The notes under the pieces: model-generated
What the model was told of the DNA's origin: nothing
The model's database searches: none
Seen by the model: only the letters and a program-made list of their open reading frames with translations
Source: Paramecium tetraurelia
Taxonomy: Eukaryota
Direction of reading: 5' to 3'
Assembly (NCBI GenBank): GCA_000165425.1
Contig: CT868097.1
Span: 440,867-504,866, forward strand
Length of the DNA stretch: 64,000 bases
Part shown: positions 5,230 to 48,329 of the stretch, one piece after another
How the letters are laid out: the number at the start of each line of letters is the position of its first letter
Position numbering within the stretch: the stretch's first letter is position 1
Made by a program: the position numbers and the translations under genes

Positions 5230-5474
5230 ACGTAGATCTAAATTATTTTTATTATTAATTTATATTTGTTATATTGTTTCATATCTTTTAATTCTATTTT
5301 GATAAAATCAAGCCTCTTCGAACTTTCCTTCGTGAGTGCAGTAATTTAATGTTATTATCAAAATACTCATTTGTTTATTAAACTAAAAAAGTTCTGAAAA
5401 AATGGAAAGCTATAATCATATTAAAATTGAAATGCTTGATTTTTATACAAAAAATATGTCAACTAATATATAAA

Positions 5475-7160
5475 TCATGCTACCAAGTGCCTGCATAGCA
5501 TTCTTTATTTTGATATTCAAATTGACCCTTCCCATGAGCTTAATCACATGAAAAAACTCCCATAAACTTAGAACCATCGGCAAAATAGAGAACTCCGATG
5601 CCATGCTTTTATCCATGTTTGACCTGTCCTTTGTATTGAATCCAATCCTTCCTTGCTAAATTCTTATATGATTTCTCCGACTCCTACTTTGGTTTATTAA
5701 AAAAGGTAACTTCACCGTCAGGGATATCAAAGACCCACATCCCCTCTGTTACCTTTTCGTTTTCAGAATCATAATAAGTGCCTTATCCATGTCTTCTTTT
5801 ATTGCAAATTTATCCAATGTAATAGAAACCGCCTGAATATTGCAATTTCCCCTATGTGATAGCATTTTCAAAAGTGTTTCTTGTCTCCTAGGTTCTGCCA
5901 TAGTCTTTGATCGAGGCCTGACTCATGTCTTGTTGCTTGTTTCTTTGTTACTCTGCCTATTAGTTTTTAGACAAATGTTAACTAGATCTAATCATAATTG
6001 GAGATGTAGCTTAGCCAGAAGGATGCTTTGATTAAAAGATATTCTAATGCAATAGATTGTCAAATGAGGAAGGCTTGTTATAACCATTAACAAAGAATTC
6101 TTAAGGTTGATGCTATTCTAATAGGCGATGCTTCTTTAGGTCCAGGAACAATTTATTGACCATTTCATCCAACTGTATGAAATCAGGTCTCTCACTTTCA
6201 TCCAATTTTAGCATCAATTCAATCAAGTGTAATATTTATTCATTAAAATTGGTGGTTATGAGATCATCTTAAACCTTCCTCAATTGGAATTCATCTATTG
6301 TCCATCTCTTCCAATCATACACTTCTGGCTTCTTGGCTTGAATCAAATAGATGATCATCAATCCAAAATTGAAAACATCTGATTTATATCGATTGTGTTT
6401 CAGATACTAGAGTATTAATATAATATAGGCATTACTTTGTCTTTCTTAGGGATAGCCTCAATTTGTGCTGGAGAAAGAAAGGCTGTCTTTTTCATTTCAC
6501 TCAAAGCTTGAAATATCTTAATATATACTTTGTTTATCATCATAAAATGAGATGAACTCTTGAAATAGATTTTATCGAATTGGTTTTTAATACCTATCCA
6601 CTAATTTGAAGACGTCAACGTTGAAAGGAGTTTTAACCATTACGATATCATCGATATCAAAGCCTGATGGGTAAATTTTGTTTGCTTGTTGAAATGAAAA
6701 TGCTGAAACTACGCAATCCAAAAGAAATAAGATTTCGTTTTGAGTAAATTGCTATTTCATTATGACCTTCTTGTGTCGAGATAAAGGTTCTATTGGTTAA
6801 TCAATGAGAAGTGTTATTTCAGTATATGGGATGAAAAGTTTCATTGATTCTATTATGGAAATATTGTGAATTGATAATAAATTAGGGTGATTGTGCTATT
6901 CACTCTTTGTTCTCCACTTCCTCACAAACTCTCTTAGTTTATTCTGGGAATCTGTTGCTTTTGAATAGATCAATCCAAAATTTGGTAAACTATTATGTTG
7001 AATTCTATGATTTAATGTTTGATTACATTTCCACCCAATCCAAGGTTTAAAATATTTTATACTCATCCGTATAAGGCATTGGAACCTAAAATTATGACAT
7101 TATTTCCCTCATTCGTAAATCTTGCTCGATATCTTAAGTTGTCCCTTAACAAGAACCCAT
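5475..7160 (-). CDS. Kinase-like (pseudokinase) domain plus C-terminal MORN repeats; N-terminal MGSC acylation motif
   Basis: C-lobe motifs YKSDVFNFGLMIIYL and LMLKLDESERPDF. MORN repeats RHGQGTYYD, KHGIGVLYFADGSKFMGVF and AHGKGQFEY. No HRD or DFG seen. Confidence 0.8.
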
Positions 7161-14861: not shown

Positions 14862-15081
14862 ATAATTAAGCTTTATATATATATAAATATTTAATTGGCA
14901 TAGACAATCTGGAGTGAAAAATATTAAATATTTTGTGCATCCTAAAAGTATTGTTCAGTGTATGTTTGATTTTGCTTTTGCTTTTTAGGGTAAGTTGTTG
15001 AGGTATGAATTAAAATATATTATTATATTGCAATAAGTATTATGTAAATGTATTAAGATTTATTTAAATTAATTTCAAATC

Positions 15082-28808: not shown

Positions 28809-29459
28809 TCATGGTCTTCTTTAATAATTTAAATGTGTTTATTGGATGTACATAGGTTGTTGCTATTATGGATATTAAAGCGGTTAACTTTGATAAACTT
28901 ACTTTGATTAATTGCCAATATGTTTTGATTGTGAAGATTACTATTGTTATGGTTGCTACTGCTACTATTGATGTTATTATATGTAAGGAGTCTACTATTG
29001 TTAATGACTTGGGTATTATTTAATGGTTGGGTTTCCTTTTATAGGTACGTTCTGCATAACAGTTTAAACCTGAGGTTTTGTATTTTGTTATTTACTTAAT
29101 AATTACTAGATCGTTTTTGGATCCAATTAGGGTTAAGATTTCACGTCCTTTGGTTATTAAAATTATTTGGAAGCACTATTAAGCTATTTTTAAAGATGTT
29201 CATTTTTTTATCTTTCTTAGTTTAATTCTTAAGTCAGCTATTCTAATTTTTTATCCTTAACTTCCAAAGCTTCTTTGAGTTTTTTTATTTAATTTTCATA
29301 TTCTTTAATTTAGTGATTATCCTTATTAGATGTATTGTTGTTATTTTTCGAAAGTTCTTCTTTTGATTTGATAATCTGCCTTTCATATGCCATTCTATTT
29401 AATTCCATTGTCAATAAGAGCATCTTAGGGTCTTCTGGAATTTGTTCTGGTTATTCCAT
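28809..29459 (-). CDS. Hypothetical coiled-coil/Gln-rich protein
   Basis: MEQPEQIPEDPKMLLLTMELNRMAYER...QPMYIQQTHLNYQRRP-TGA. Confidence 0.65.
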
Positions 29460-31425: not shown

Positions 31426-32593
31426 TCATATTTTAAATGTCTAAATCTTAGTGTCAAATCTCATATGCATTTCTTATATAAATGTCTTGCTGATTTTGAC
31501 ATTGAGGGAAGCATCAAGCAACTCATCCCAATCCACCTCCAACTCATTATCATCAATTCGATAATTCTATTGGCTAAGAATGCAGATAATTCCAGTCATA
31601 TCTTCACTCATCAAAATCTCTTAATGATAAAGGAGAAAACCAATGATCAATTGATAGATGTATGTCCAACCATACCTGAAGATACAATCGAACAATTTCA
31701 CTTGTTTCTGGATTGGGATCATCATTCCAAATAATGAAAACAACCACGAGGCACAAAACATGTCCACTTTCACACCGTTGATACAGAAATGTTAGTATAG
31801 GTCTGGCATCTTGGTTAGGATGAGATAATCAATCAATTAGATATGTTTCGATAAACCAGGAGACCTACTATTATATTAACTTACATAGGCGAATAAAGAT
31901 CATTCATTTATAGTTGATCCATGAGTTTTCTGAGTAGTTCAAAAGCCACATAATTGTCAGAATGATAAATCAGTCCAGCGGCAACAAAGTTCATTCCTTA
32001 CATGTAACCAACAATTTTGTTGTATTTAGAATATGCACTCAAAACCTATTGTAAATCTGATAGTTTTTAAGGGTAATTCTTAAGTGGATGAGTTCTTTCA
32101 ACATCAAGATTTATTTGTTTGATGATCTTTGGTTCACATTTACTTTCCAATAGATTAGAGTATTTAGACTTTAATTTTTCAGTGTCGTAATTTCCTAACC
32201 ACTCCTTAGCCTTGATACAAGTATTATTTTAATAAGGCAAGCATTTACAAGGATCAACTTCCCGAGTGAATAGTCTCATTATTTTATTTATCACACTTTC
32301 CTCTTTCTCTTTTGGTCTAATATCATCATATGTTAATGTACTAAATCCTTAAACTGAACACACAGTTTAATTACTTCCACATCTTTATGGAACCTTGATT
32401 ATTTATATCTGCTAAATGAACTCAAGTTAATTACCTTAGGTTATTTTGGATAATGAATTGTCTTGGAATCTCTATTTACCCCTGTCACATTAATATTTCT
32501 AGTTTGTTGGGTATGCTTTGGATTCTCGATAGTCGGTTCGAATTTCTTTTCCAATTATCCATGGGAGGACCTACCTTAAAATTGCTCGGACAT
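31426..32593 (-). CDS. TBC-domain Rab GTPase-activating protein
   Basis: QINLDVERT (Arg finger), VLSAYSKYNKIVGYMQGMNFVAA (Gln finger) and MFCASWLFSLF. Confidence 0.92.
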
Positions 32594-38440: not shown

Positions 38441-39370
38441 TCATTATTTCAAATTTGCTACTAATTTGTGAACATTTTCATTCCAATTCATCTTTGTACC
38501 TGTTATTGGTAGAGGTCTTCTCATAGCTTTAAAGAAAAAGTCAGGCATAGAATTATATAAATTATCCATTCCTGCTAATTGCTTGTTTTCTAATTTAGCG
38601 ATTGTGTGAACAATCTATTTAGCACTTTCACTAGCTGTTGACAAGTCTACATTGATTCCTTCTGAAAAGGCATTTACATTTTTTAATTGCACATTACCAT
38701 CTTCATAATAGTGTGCTTACACTTTCAAATCACCTTTCAATTATGTTTTTGTTAATTCCCAAGTTGAGATCCAACTTCCGCAGCTAAAATATAATGGATT
38801 AATTTTACAAAAAGTTTGGCAAATTGATTGTTTTTGCAGTAATTCCTATGTAGAATGTGTAATCGGAAGCATCACCTTGATACATAACTAATTAAATGCA
38901 TTTTAAGTGTACCATAAGCTCCACAAACCTTCTCATTAAATTGTTAACTCAAGTAGAGATTTAATTGCTATTCAAGTGCATCTCTCAGTACGTTTAGTTC
39001 TGGATCTGATGGTAATTCCACTTAAGATCTGGATATTATTTCTAATTTTTCATGATCCACTTAAATTGTCTCATTGTTTTTCTAATCTACATAAAAGTCT
39101 TCCTAAGAATTCAGTACACTCGTAAGGATCTAAGTGATAAATATAGACTATTACTTGAGTGTTTTAGCCTTTAATCAAAGCCAAATGCTCCTCGTTATGA
39201 TCCCTCAATGCTTATAGCATAATAGCATGCTATGGATTAATATTCCCAATGATTTTGCACAAATCCTTAATCACTAAATTAGCTTATCCGAAAGGAGTAT
39301 TTTTGACAATGTACTTCACCACTTTCTCGTGTTAGTCATGTTCTGTGACTTCTCCCTCCCCTTAATTCAT
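38441..39370 (-). CDS. CAPZA: F-actin capping protein alpha subunit
   Basis: NTPFGQ...VIKDL, CGSWISTW, KVQAHYYEDGNVQL and FKAMRRPLPITGTKMNW. Confidence 0.93.
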
Positions 39371-39439
39371 TATATATCTTTTATAAATTAATATATAATC
39401 ATCTTAATAACATCATAAAAATATTCATTCTGTAAATGA

Positions 39440-39570
39440 GGTTGTTGTGTTGTATCTGTGTAGGTGTTCAATTCCTTCGAACATTCTACTAAGAGAAACA
39501 CATTTACTATTAGAGATCAATGCTAACTGACTACTATAGAAATAACCAATCATCGCTTTATCTCTCACAC
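39440..39570 (-). ncRNA. Box H/ACA snoRNA/scaRNA candidate (about 130 nt)
   Basis: On the minus strand: hairpin 1 (AGAGAU/AUCUCU lower stem, 12-bp upper stem with five G-U pairs), H box AUAGUA (plus 39505-39510), hairpin 2 (UGUGUU/AACACA lower stem, GUAG..UGUUC/GAACA..CUAC upper stem), then ACA plus 3 nt. The second upper stem is 14 nt from the ACA box. Confidence 0.85.
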
Positions 39571-39649
39571 GCAATTAATAAAAAGTTAATATTAATATTT
39601 AATATTTAATAATTATTATCTTCTTAATTAGTAAGTGCTAAATATGATG

Positions 39650-42038
39650 TCACCTCTTCTGCTTTTGCTTGAGTTTTGAATACCAAGATGGCCCTTCTTA
39701 CTCTTTTTATTTTTATTGATTATTTTGAGCAACATCTAAAAATAAATCCAATTTCTTACTCTTTTTCTACATAGCACTTTAAGGATCAATATATGTTTTT
39801 GTATTTAATGCTTCCGACATCTCGTTTATGGCACTCCTCAAATTTTGTCTCATATCATTTTAACTACCAGTGGCAATCCCTATTAAAATATTCTAAATAT
39901 TCTGCAAATTCTATCTTTTAATCCTCAATCTTTATAGATCTTCCTCTGCCCTCATGAATCTCTATTCAATTTATAAATTACTATTACATTAGCAATATCA
40001 TCATTTTCAGCCTTTAAAATCTAATAATCCTAATCATATTTTTTTAGCAATGACTTATATTTTAAGATCTCTCGGTCTCTCTCTTCAATATGGGCAACTA
40101 AATAGGAATGACTAATCATTATATATAAACTATTTACGGTTGATGTGTTTTATCAAGTACATCTCTCTACAATTTGGTCTCCTCTTATAATTTCTCAATT
40201 TCTTATTGCTTCTCTCTTAATTTTATTTGTAACTCTTCTGATTCTCTTTACTTTGCTTGCAGTCTTTAAGCCAAATTTAAAGCCTGTTGAATTCTCCTTT
40301 TAGAAGAAGTAGGCACAGTGCCCATAAATCCCAATAATGGATTCATAGCATCATATTCATTACCTGCTGATTTCATAATAGCATCATCAATTTCTCTTTC
40401 AATTCCTTCATAATTTTTGAGTTGTTCTTTTGCAACTTGTAATTGAGCATTTATGCCGCTCATCTGTTCCTTTGCCTCTACTTAACATTTATAATACTCT
40501 GCCTTTAAAACATTTATTTTTTCCCTTAGCATCTCATTCTCATATTTCATAGCCTTGAGATTGGCCAAAGTATCCTCATAGATATTCTAAACTCTATCCA
40601 ACTCCTCCACCTTTAACCTCAATTGAATTCTCTATTCAGATAAATCTCCATCTATTTTTCTTTATAAATTTCTATAATCAATTAATAAATGATCATATAA
40701 TATTGACTTTTCCTTCACTTACCCTTCTAGATTATCTTTTCTAAGTTAAATTTCTTCCTTTGCATCCTTCAAGAATTTTATCTAAGTTTCATAAATATCA
40801 ACTAAATTCTATTTGGCAATTTCCAATTCATGATGATGCTTTTCTTTAAGATCTGCAATTTCCGAGTAAATTCTTTTTTCATAAGCCTGAGTCTAATCAG
40901 TTTTAGAATTGAGCAATTAGAATAGATATTCTTAGGCTTAGTTTTTTGCTTCCAAATATTCCTTCTCTGTTCTATCCAATTTGTCCTCCAATCTCTTAAC
41001 CTTCTCCAATAGCTATATGTTCTCCTTAGTTAAATACTCCTTGTCTTATTATAAAAGATCTCCCTTTCTCTTGGCATCATCCTATGCCTTATATTGATCT
41101 CTTGCCTTATCCCCTGCTTGATTATTTTGATAGAAACCAGCCTTTTCTTCCAATAAAAACTTCTCTTATTCCAATCTCTTATAATCCCTGCTCAACTCAT
41201 CAAATCTCGCACCCTTCTCTCTTAAAAGGGCTAACTCTTCTTAAGACTTAATTAGTTCTAACTCCAAAGCTTTCCTAGCATTATCATAGTTTAATTTGTG
41301 TCTTCTGATATCCTCTTCTCTATCTACCATCATCTTTTATCCATGTTCCAAATCATTCAATAAGAATTAGTGTTTCTCTGTAATCTATCTAAGTTCTTCT
41401 CTCAAAGCCAATATCTCCTTTTTCTAAAATTCCCCTTCCTTTTTAAATGGATACACAATCTCCCAAACCTAAACCAGCACCCAATCTTAGATGGGCATCT
41501 CCTTCTCATTCATATCTCTCAATCTCAAATAAACAACCTCTGGAACTAACCCAGCTAACATGTCTCTGACTTATGCCAAAGCCTCCCTTATTCCTGGCAA
41601 TTGAGATTCTTAATATATCATCTTAGACTTAAGTTGTTTGATTTCACTTAAAAGCTTATCAGTTTCAATTCTATGATTAGCAAAAATCCTTTGTCTATCA
41701 GCATCGTTAGCTGCTTGAATCCGCTTTATTTCTGCATTTAGAAATGCTATTTATTTCTCTTGCATGCCCACTACAGAAGAATAATTCTATTATTGAATCA
41801 ATTATAATACATTTTTCATATTGACTGTGTCGTGAGTATCCCCTCCTCTATTATGTCTCTTCTATTAAAAATTCTCAATATCAGCTATGGATACAGAATC
41901 TCTCATGCTATCTGATTCACTGTCGCTCATAATCACTTAGCCTTGTTCGAATTGCCTAATATCTTCCTCAGAAAATGTAGTTGGGTCAATATTCATTGAT
42001 TTCATCAGTTTTATGAAATCTCTCCTCTTCAAGCTCAT
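39650..42038 (-). CDS. PIBF1: PIBF1/CEP90 basal-body coiled-coil protein
   Basis: YLRLRDMNEKEMPIQDWVLVQVWEIVYPFK, EIDDAIMKSA...VPTSSKRRIQQALNLAQRL and C-terminal PSWYSKLK match the PIBF1 pattern. Confidence 0.85.
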
Positions 42039-42428
42039 TTATCAGTTAATTATTTCAAATTTCGTTTTCTAGTTATAATATTCATAGATTAATTATGTCA
42101 ATCCCAACAACACTCTCCATTGATATGGTTCTAATGACAATATCGTTCAATAGTTATTTAATTAAATTCATAACCTTCCAAATATCCAAAAAATAATATA
42201 GATTTCTAAATAAAGACCAATTAAATTATTTATTATAATATTATAAATTTGTTTTTGTAATTGCAAGTTGCCCATATATTTCATAGTTGAATTTTATTTT
42301 CCAAATATCAATCTATTAAAACTGATGCAAGCACCTGTAAACCATAGCCAAAACTTAATTATGATTGTAAAGTGTAATTATTATAAGTAATATGAAAAAT
42401 TCAAATATTAACAATATAATTAAAAATA

Positions 42429-45952: not shown

Positions 45953-47648
45953 ATGAAATCCTCGGATCACTAACAATAAAATTCAGTTGGTTGGCTTTTA
46001 AATTTGGTTGGAAAATTTTCTCCAAAAGATTTGGAAAAATCAAATCTAAAGGAAATTGGAGAAGAATATATGAAAAAGATCTTACTCTATCCTCAACTGT
46101 AATCAGGGAATGTTTTTAGTTACAACTAATAAAAATAAGAATTCTCCGAAAAACTATTTCATATATACCCTAATATTCTAATATGTCAACATGACAAAAT
46201 TCATACTCATTTAATATTGAGTAATTGCAGTATTTAAAAAGAGTTAATCTAATACAAAGAAGCAAAAACCTATGGATTAATTATATCTAATAATTTAGGG
46301 AACACATATCTATTCTTTTCTTAATTCATTCAGTATCGAAACTGGTATAAATTGATGAAACAATATTGTAAATTGAATGACTTTTTTGGGAAGTACAAAT
46401 TAACAGATAGAATGCTGCCTGGAATATATCAATGCTATAAGAAATCCGTAATAATTGATTATCAATTTAGAATAATGCCTAATTCACAGTTCAAATATAC
46501 AAGATGGAAGACTTTGAATAATGGCCTGAGATAGAGGAGGTGGTTCATAATGAAATACAAATGCTACGTTCGATTAAGCATTCAAATTTGTTGCAACTAA
46601 GAAGAGTGTACGAAGATGACTCATATTTATTCATCCTCTATGAGCATTTCAAAGGAGAGTCCCTCTATAATTTAATATTAACAAATCCGTTACACGAAGT
46701 TCAAATAGCTTCAGTAATTAGCTTATCTATTAAATTAGATCGTTTATCAAATCTTGCAACTGCTTAAATTTTTGGATAAACATCAATTTTATCATGGAAA
46801 TCTCAATCCTCTAAACATAATTATTAACTCCAATAATTAACTCCTTTAGATCTTTTTGATAAACTTATCTTTCAAAGTATTGATTGTTTTGGTATCAATA
46901 GCAATACAGAATAAATGATAAATTAGACTGGATTTTGAATAGATAGATTGAAGGATTTATAGCACCTGAGTTTTATAATGGAGTACCCCCAAACATTACT
47001 TCTGATTTGTATAGTTTAGGAGTCCTGCTTTATTTCATGACATTTCCAACACAGTTGCCAAGTGAGAAACATTTTGATAAATATGAAATCGATACAACTA
47101 AAATTTAGAGATTATTGTAAAAGAAATTGTCTTAAATCCCTAATGATGCAACCTCCCCACTTGATAAATCAATAGAGAAGAACATCAGTTTAAGCGAATT
47201 AGATTTATTATCCAAATTGCTAGAAACCATTCCTAGTATTTATTTCTTAAATGATAGAGCAAAGAATCACAATATCTGACGGTATGAAACATCATTGGTT
47301 TGTGAATATTAAGAGCAAGATTAAATAGCTGAATGTTGTGAAAAAGAAAAAGGTAGAATTGCCTTCATTAAGAACAATTATAGAATTAAGATCCTAAAGT
47401 GAACTGGACCTTAAGGTTTAATCTTAACTATCCAATAACAGAAGACAGTCAAGATTAGCTCCAATCTAGGTTGATGATTTTGATGTAGGTAATCTAGGAA
47501 TGTATTAAAGTTAGTACCTGATGAAGGGCATCCTTTAGAGTAGGTTGCTGATCTAGATTTTTGTTAATTGCTAAGAAGCAGTACTTAATTAAGAAAAATG
47601 TAAACCTTAAGCAACAAATCCATTGGTTGATTTAATTCGAATGTATGA
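45953..47648 (+). CDS. PH-like domain plus CAMK-like kinase domain, probably catalytically inactive
   Basis: NEIQMLRSIKHSNLLQLRRVYED, YHGNLNPLNII (no HRD), INLSF (no DFG), GFIAPE and SDLYSLGVLLY. Confidence 0.85.
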
Positions 47649-47690
47649 TTTATAAAAATATATATATAAGATCTCAAATTATCAGCTTTT

Positions 47691-48329
47691 TCAAAATATG
47701 ATTTTCTTATCATACATACATATTAATAAGGATGAGTTCATCATCTTTGCTGTCACATAACACACAAATAAAGCCTTATTTGGAACTAAAGAACTTCCAG
47801 ATTATGGTCTAAAGAGTTTAAACTTATATTTACTTTTAGAAAAAAAAGTTATTTATTCTTAAATAATCCAGAATTATCCTAAACGGTATTAAAATCTTCA
47901 AATCATTCAATAAATTTGAGAAGATAATACCCATTGGTTTATTTTCTAAGAGACCAGCAAATAGATAATAAGGAATTGGAGCTAGAGGACTAATAACCTT
48001 GTATATAATATGTAGTACTAATTTAAATTTGGGGGAGTATTGTCTCTGTCCTAAAAATTGATTTAATTTCACATGCAATAAAGAATTGAAATTAGTTGAC
48101 ATAAATCCATAAGTAAAATTTCTAAAATAATTGATTTTGAATGGATCAGATATCTTATTATGTAATTTTTTACATCGTATTCATCTTATATTTATTAAAA
48201 TTGCTCTGAATACTTGCTTCTGTATGAATTATCAATGAATGATGTAATGTAATCCATTGAAATGAATCCTAATCCTACCAAAGAAAATGATGCGATTCTC
48301 CCGGACAATGTGGGTTTTATTTTATACAT
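47691..48329 (-). CDS. Small membrane protein, possibly divergent Mpv17/PMP22 family
   Basis: FSLVGLGFISMDYI, FRNFTYGF...LLH and KLVLHIIYKVISP...YYLFAGLLENK spacing recalls Mpv17/PMP22; the family call is weak. Confidence 0.5.

Follow-up and report, generated by a model that had tools for sequence, protein, structure and literature searches.

Box H/ACA snoRNAs that carry two hairpins and guide pseudouridylation are said to have been defined by Ganot, Caizergues-Ferrer and Kiss in 1997; they evolve fast and escape homology searches. In yeast and plants, snoRNA genes read by Pol II are independently transcribed, with precursors that are 3'-extended and polyadenylated. For ciliates, the available part of PMC3273799 describes the cloned two-hairpin H/ACA snoRNAs of Tetrahymena as canonical and 124-136 nt long, reports that, of 27 monocistronic Tetrahymena snoRNA genes, 22 are preceded by the element USE (AAACCCATAA), which Paramecium ncRNA genes also have, and suggests Pol III for some ciliate snoRNA genes. 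For Paramecium itself, according to the available part of PMC5485702, Rfam predictions supplied the noncoding genes of the v2 annotation, and a handful of introns of ~80 nt contain snoRNAs. The latter statement shows to be too strong a claim made in the first-pass annotation of the locus described here, namely that Paramecium introns are too small to host snoRNAs.

The locus lies on the minus strand at 39440-39570 of a 64,000-nucleotide stretch of Paramecium tetraurelia DNA, referred to as the window, to which all positions refer. Taking all the evidence together, a 279-nt spacer between two protein genes probably holds an independently transcribed, minus-strand box H/ACA snoRNA gene, of predicted ends and with a putative guide function and putative targets. 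The window has a GC content of 28.2%. Its ORFs are open only when TAA and TAG are read as Q and the first intron of CapZ alpha is 25 nt long, and its sequence features thus read as those of ciliate macronuclear DNA. Upstream of the candidate, on the same strand, is a gene composed of long coiled-coil-like ORFs (40116-42041 and 39650-39997) with its stop TGA at 39652-39650; downstream, the ATG of CapZ alpha is at 39370-39368. The space between this TGA and this ATG, previously put at 280 nt, measures 279 nt, and the candidate begins ~80 nt past the upstream stop. As for the names originally given to the two genes, CapZ alpha is borne out by two exons that match Pfam PF01267, the first at E = 2.3e-06 and the last at 1.3e-33, while PIBF1 is not: the upstream ORFs, of 641 aa and of 115 aa, gave no Pfam family with E up to 0.01. 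A tRNA scan found no tRNA in the window.

The candidate coincides with an island of higher GC in AT-rich intergenic DNA, as had been noticed at the outset. GC is 27-40% in 30-nt windows from ~39580 to ~39450, falling to 3-10% (39630-39600) and 7-13% (39420-39390) in the spacer on either side. With a GC of 0.34, i.e. 34% versus 3-13% in its flanks, the segment 39426-39568 ranks first among 20 islands of this sort in the window, each 50-320 nt long and lying between AT troughs. Neither strand of this island contains a C/D box pair (RUGAUGA, CUGA). A C/D snoRNA on the plus strand was considered and rejected: the match to Rfam snoZ267 scores 20.5 bits versus a gathering threshold of 43, the strand is not transcribed and it has no box pair. 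Further small GC islands between AT troughs, with GC of 0.29-0.31, are seen at 47670-47816 (minus), 14898-15003 and 29321-29449. The minus strand of 47670-47816 has an RUGAUGA...CUGA pair 59 nt apart and, from these motifs, could be a candidate C/D snoRNA.

Read on the minus strand, the candidate has the order hairpin, H box, hairpin, ACA and three nucleotides that was originally proposed, an arrangement reproduced by both a structural descriptor and the MFE fold. Hairpin 1 rests on a basal stem of six Watson-Crick pairs between AGAGAU (39560-39565) and AUCUCU (39512-39517), found with the descriptor and in the MFE fold. Above it, the descriptor places a putative pseudouridylation pocket with AAAGCGA (39553-39559) as 5' strand and GCAUUG (39518-39523) as 3' strand, the former being partly closed by a 2-bp GC/GC helix in the MFE fold. 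The upper stem (39524-39552) consists of 12 bp closed by the 5-nt loop UCUAU; its pairs are uninterrupted and include five G-U and one G-C. That all 12 positions pair only with the help of five G-U wobbles, and that the strand is thereby fixed, agrees with the earlier reading: a stem so rich in G-U is possible on the minus strand only, and the strand able to form it is the transcribed one. The hinge contains AUAGUA (39505-39510), which fits the H box consensus ANANNA; the descriptor identifies it, and it is unpaired in the MFE fold of 39566-39440 and partly paired with upstream sequence in a longer, 151-nt fold. Hairpin 2 has a basal stem between UGUGUU (39497-39502) and AACACA (39446-39451), again found with the descriptor and in the MFE fold, and a putative pocket, from the descriptor, formed by UCUCUUA (39490-39496), which lies inside the 9-mer UUCUCUUAG, and by ACAGAUAC (39452-39459), which contains AGAUAC. 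Its upper stem-loop (GUAG..UGUUCGA, loop AGGAA, UUGAACA..CUAC; 39460-39489) is supported by both descriptor and MFE fold. The ACA box (39445-39443) adjoins the basal stem of hairpin 2 and is followed in the sequence by the 3-nt tail ACC, the two together spanning 39440-39445, with the mature 3' end predicted at 39440. The distance from upper stem to box is 13 nt for hairpin 1 (to the H box) and 14 nt for hairpin 2 (to ACA), in line with the 13-14 nt reported before, and the predicted target U would therefore lie 14-15 nt upstream of each box, in agreement with the 14-16 nt that characterise the pockets of box H/ACA snoRNAs.

Thus, the candidate resembles eukaryotic two-hairpin H/ACA RNAs in its succession of hairpin, hinge, hairpin and tail, in its ANANNA H box, in the ACA placed right after hairpin 2, in putative pocket tops 13-14 nt before the boxes and in a predicted length of ~130 nt. 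This length, 126-131 nt when the possible ends are considered, falls inside the range of 124-136 nt given for Tetrahymena thermophila H/ACA RNAs in the available part of PMC3273799.

How unusual such a structure is was assessed by folding and by shuffling. For minus-strand 39566-39440, the RNAfold MFE structure is exactly hairpin, single-stranded hinge, hairpin and tail, with AUAGUA and ACA unpaired, at -29.7 kcal/mol (z = -2.52; 7 of 500 shuffles equally good). The reverse complement of 39430-39580, the wider range that the first-pass annotation had suggested for RNAfold, retains hairpin, hinge, hairpin and tail as its MFE architecture, with z = -1.65 and 10 of 200 shuffles as good. The plus strand yields a different fold with z = -1.43, and hairpin 2 by itself reaches -15.0 kcal/mol (z = -2.65), a value that 4 of 500 shuffles equalled or bettered. 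A loose descriptor, with basal stems of at least 4 bp, is common, being matched at 144 loci in the window and in 407 of 1500 shuffles. The strict descriptor, with basal stems of at least 6 bp in both hairpins, is matched at 13 loci on both strands of the 64-kb window (128 kb of strand), and only one of these 13, the candidate with its 12 bp, has an upper-stem run longer than 6. When the 206-nt transcript was dinucleotide-shuffled 1500 times, the strict architecture came up 27 times, or 4 times with at least 8 bp of upper stem as a further requirement; these small figures are optimistic because the descriptor thresholds were chosen post hoc, the candidate having already been seen. Uninterrupted hairpins of at least 12 bp occur at 18 loci on both strands of the window; the longest of all, with G-U allowed, have 15 bp and 14 bp and lie at 47419-47457 and 31663-31694, both on the minus strand. 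Together, these results indicate an architecture moderately beyond what chance would give; structure alone is suggestive, not decisive.

Four RNA or contig runs were mapped to 39250-39750. One of them, X22, is a stranded oligo-dT RNA library used as raw reads; two others, X17 and X19, provided assembled contigs, and that their libraries are RNA is a guess. X22 reads delineate a transcribed unit at 39403-39572 with a depth of 2 to 16.6: depth rises from 2.6 (39556-39572) to 16.6 (39505-39521) and declines to 2 (39403-39419). It is exactly 0 at 39573-39623 and at 39386-39402, the latter bin being flanked by bins at 7.2 and 2. By the sum of bins, this block corresponds to ~28 reads of 58 nt. All first mates over the candidate are on the plus strand, as they are for both flanking minus-strand genes, indicating that the candidate RNA comes from the minus strand. 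In the same library, CapZ is covered 80-330x and the 3' end of the upstream gene 0.4-3.2x; the candidate peak is thus ~5x the upstream gene's 3' end (last 100 nt) and ~5% of CapZ. X17 and X19 each contain a separate contig for the candidate (209 nt and 205 nt, respectively; 39379-39584, minus), with no link to the contigs of CapZ, whose ends are at 39364 and 39360, or to that of the upstream gene, which begins at 39642. Zero-depth flanks, a depth above that of the upstream 3' end and separate contigs all argue for an own transcription unit and against simple read-through. The locus is, therefore, a discrete minus-strand transcription unit.

The ends of this unit differ in character. At the 5' side, depth climbs steeply between 39572 and 39521, over roughly the length of a single 58-nt read, which locates the start of the RNA at the base of hairpin 1. 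At the 3' side, X22 reads and contigs run 20-60 nt past 39440 (to 39403-39379), and neither the oligo-dT library nor the contigs show an end at 39440; no species of ~131 nt was seen among the ~28 oligo-dT reads and the X17 and X19 contigs, libraries that are poly(A)-selected or of guessed type. 3'-extended precursors are known for independently transcribed snoRNAs of other eukaryotes, and we infer that the poly(A)-selected molecules would be 3'-extended snoRNA precursors of this kind. The candidate is like the yeast and plant units in standing alone between protein genes, in being found in poly(A)-selected RNA and in reaching tens of nucleotides past its predicted end. A T5 tract (39417-39421, minus) is located 19-23 nt downstream of the predicted 3' end, and read depth drops from 5.2 to 2 across it; judging from its sequence, it is a possible terminator or 3'-processing landmark. 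In contrast to what is seen in yeast and plant Pol II genes, this tract could instead mark Pol III termination.

Two observations were made at the CapZ side of the same alignments. In X17, a 136-nt contig matches CapZ as far as 39364, where it gives way to 29 nt that do not resemble the window; a chimeric contig, a paralogue or an alternative 5' end may account for it. In CapZ exon 1, ~16-26% of RNA reads have G>A or A>T at 39257, 39290, 39293 and 39296; the variants at 39290, 39293 and 39296 co-occur, in reads with at least three other differences, and these reads look as if they came from a diverged paralogue or allele that passed the 85% likeness cut-off.

The candidate has no sequence match to any H/ACA family in Rfam: no family was found either at gathering thresholds (whole window) or at E up to 10 (minus strand, 39440-39570), so that the Rfam check put forward with the first-pass annotation came back empty. 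Matches to the predicted pocket strings pointed to one RNA of the related ciliate Tetrahymena, TtnuHACA1. The candidate reads AUAGUA, 7 nt, UUCUCUUAG, 31 nt, AGAUAC, 6 nt, ACA and ACC; TtnuHACA1, as given in the available part of PMC3273799 (supplement S3), reads AUAGUG (H-box-like), 4 nt, UUCUCUUAG, 27 nt, AGAUAC, 10 nt, ACA and UUU. Compared by eye, the two thus have in common AUAGUR, UUCUCUUAG, ~30 nt, AGAUAC and ACA-N3. Across the whole supplement, in the form available, the UUCUCUUAG 9-mer occurs once and AGATAC three times, which makes coincidence an unlikely source of the shared order. AGAUAC falls in the 3' pocket in both RNAs, and the 5' hairpins, again by eye, are alike in a pocket strand of 6-7 nt, an upper stem of 10-12 bp and a 5-nt loop, with a 3' pocket strand that starts with GC in each. 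The match does not extend to every detail. The 5' pockets are AGAGUC/GCUUGC in TtnuHACA1 versus AAAGCGA/GCAUUG in the candidate, and the guide strings of hairpin 1 were not found in the available Tetrahymena supplement. Moreover, the 9-mer is a predicted basal-stem strand in TtnuHACA1 and a pocket in the candidate, so the two cannot be superimposed in detail. We regard the shared motif order, as read from the sequences, as a lead towards homology. The USE (AAACCCATAA, at most one mismatch) is absent from the spacer (39371-39649), and its 9 matches in the window compare with 10.03 expected; in this respect, the candidate is unlike most monocistronic Tetrahymena snoRNA genes as the available part of PMC3273799 describes them.

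Targets were sought as bipartite pairing around a U, following the criteria in the available part of PMC3273799, on the sense strands of surrogate rDNA. The latter was composed of eukaryote and ciliate contigs contaminating bacterial assemblies and is not P. tetraurelia's own rRNA, which, by Rfam, is not in the 64-kb window. At least 47 loci were retrieved with a eukaryote 18S primer and 32 with a ciliate 18S primer, 13 loci being Rfam-annotated; from the ciliate-primer set, 10 long bacterial contigs were dropped as chance matches and 22 were kept. With the pockets in fixed register, pairing on this surrogate rDNA was no better than that of shuffled pocket strands. Over 25 register combinations and 67,665 nt of surrogate rDNA, the best score was 12.5 per hairpin, a value that shuffled guides reached in 34 of 40 trials for hairpin 2 and in 27 of 40 for hairpin 1. 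Attractive individual pairings are therefore not claimed, since their scores do not rise above those of shuffled guides. Set aside in this way were LSU GGUG-U-C-CUAAGG, SSU helix-45 GUAUCUG-U-A-GGAGAA (locus L082) and SSU UUAAUGU-U-G-UUGC (locus L078). In Tetrahymena, eight pockets in five H/ACA RNAs are without a target according to the available part of PMC3273799. One of the surrogate loci, L045, an SSU rDNA contig of eukaryote origin that contaminates a bacterial MAG, has a group I intron inside its 18S gene (5472-5734; Rfam RF00028, 97.5 bits).

Relatives of the locus were sought through its neighbour. A CapZ-seeded scan of genome contigs gave 41 pattern stretches, none of which was confirmed. 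With CapZ exon 1, the metagenome scan gave 207 stretches and again none was confirmed, in what was a weak scan, five of the six query peptides holding Q (mostly TAA here). With the C-terminal 50 aa of CapZ, at least 599 metagenome stretches were obtained; four relatives were recognised among the matches listed, with 57-71% identity over ~20 residues, too distant to be fit to carry an orthologous spacer. No second copy of the candidate occurs elsewhere in the 64-kb window. In the literature outside the Paramecium ncRNA catalogue of Chen et al. 2009, our search found no Paramecium H/ACA sequences. Because the noncoding genes of the v2 annotation are Rfam-derived, as the available part of PMC5485702 has it, and Rfam is blind to the locus, the locus may well be unannotated.

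Three other explanations of these data were weighed. An ORF of 42 codons, which the first-pass annotation does not mention, spans the candidate (39425-39553, minus; ATG at 39553, TGA at 39427-39425), and the RNA might accordingly be a very small polyadenylated mRNA for a 42-residue peptide, its H/ACA-like fold being coincidental. The presence of the transcript in an oligo-dT library and a GC at coding level are as expected of an mRNA. So are a leader of 12-31 nt and a trailer of 22-46 nt, which match the mean Paramecium UTRs of 21.7 and 44.6 nt in the available part of PMC5485702. The in-frame codon log-odds of 0.89 lies inside the range of coding segments (31st percentile), but a score as good is reached by 10.6% of off-frame segments, so that the codon test barely discriminates coding from off-frame. 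ORFs of such a size are also ordinary, TGA being the sole stop: of 24 strand-readings made on comparable small islands, 12 hold an ATG..TGA ORF of at least 30 codons and 7 hold one of at least 37. No homologue was found. A comparison with 5.8 billion clusters turned up neither the peptide itself nor any protein of 23-74 aa that has three 5-residue words in common with it; HMMER against 1.84 billion representatives gave a single match, a 1151-aa leucine-rich-repeat protein that was rejected as an orthologue, the match consisting of six repeats that each resemble residues 16-35; and the ORF belongs to no Pfam family. The ATG is preceded by GCG, with G at -3, versus an A/T-rich context at the CapZ start, and the H/ACA architecture would have to be a coincidence of 0.3-1.8%. 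The ORF is thus weak evidence for coding, and we consider an mRNA of this kind rather unlikely. A longer, stop-to-stop frame (39425-39649, minus) starts right after the upstream TGA, in frame with the upstream gene; read-through of that TGA would append 74 residues, and no RNA coverage connects the upstream gene with this ORF.

The transcript might, alternatively, be noncoding without being a guide: a cryptic or unstable intergenic Pol II RNA, a CapZ promoter-upstream RNA, or a rare CapZ isoform with a long 5'UTR whose AT-rich link is under-sampled. Its low depth, ~5% of CapZ, would fit, as would contigs that extend to 39379, 9 nt from the CapZ ATG, and the spacers of 3-13% GC may be under-represented, as very AT-rich stretches may be in Illumina libraries. 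The lack of an Rfam match, of a USE and, on surrogate rDNA, of any target above shuffled guides also agrees with this. However, the bin 39386-39402 is at zero between bins at 7.2 and 2, the contigs are separate in two runs, and a cryptic RNA explains neither the GC island nor the architecture; in addition, the available part of PMC5485702 calls alternative start sites extremely rare in this genus. We therefore hold a non-guide transcript to be unlikely. Finally, an H/ACA snoRNA could be processed from read-through of the upstream coiled-coil gene, with no promoter of its own, as its position ~80 nt past the stop codon on the same strand would allow. This was one of two routes of biogenesis originally entertained, and it is the other, independent transcription, that the RNA data favour: depth is 0 over 39573-39623, the upstream-gene contig ends at 39642, and the candidate reaches 16.6 versus 0.4-3.2, ~5x the depth of the last 100 nt of the upstream gene in the same poly(A) library, where a processed, non-adenylated product is not expected to outnumber its host. 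Read-through origin is thus highly improbable.

For an independently transcribed H/ACA gene, we propose the following course of events. The primary transcript would start at ~39570-39584 and run to ~39420-39379, its 3'-extended form probably being what poly(A)-selected RNA detects. It would be trimmed to a mature RNA of ~126-131 nt, from 39570 or 39565 to 39440, in which two hairpins are parted by the H box AUAGUA and which ends in ACA-ACC. From what is common to the H/ACA family, this RNA would assemble with Cbf5/dyskerin, Nop10, Nhp2 and Gar1. The loops AAAGCGA/GCAUUG and UCUCUUA/ACAGAUAC would each base-pair with the sequence to either side of a target uridine, and this uridine, positioned 14-15 nt upstream of the box, would be isomerised to pseudouridine. 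A further-reaching proposal can be made, in which the locus would be the TtnuHACA1 orthologue, kept across oligohymenophorean ciliates by way of UUCUCUUAG and AGAUAC and belonging to a class that has no USE and arises from short, polyadenylated, mRNA-like Pol II transcripts; its precursor would possibly be read by ribosomes over the 42-codon ORF, making it a dual-use snoRNA/micropeptide. We judge this combination to be quite improbable.

The candidate leaves general concepts unchanged. If confirmed, it would enlarge the poorly charted modification map of ciliates by one guide RNA and as many as two pseudouridine sites, and a GC island taken together with a discrete small transcript and an H/ACA descriptor would prove to be a usable recipe for finding the remaining genes.
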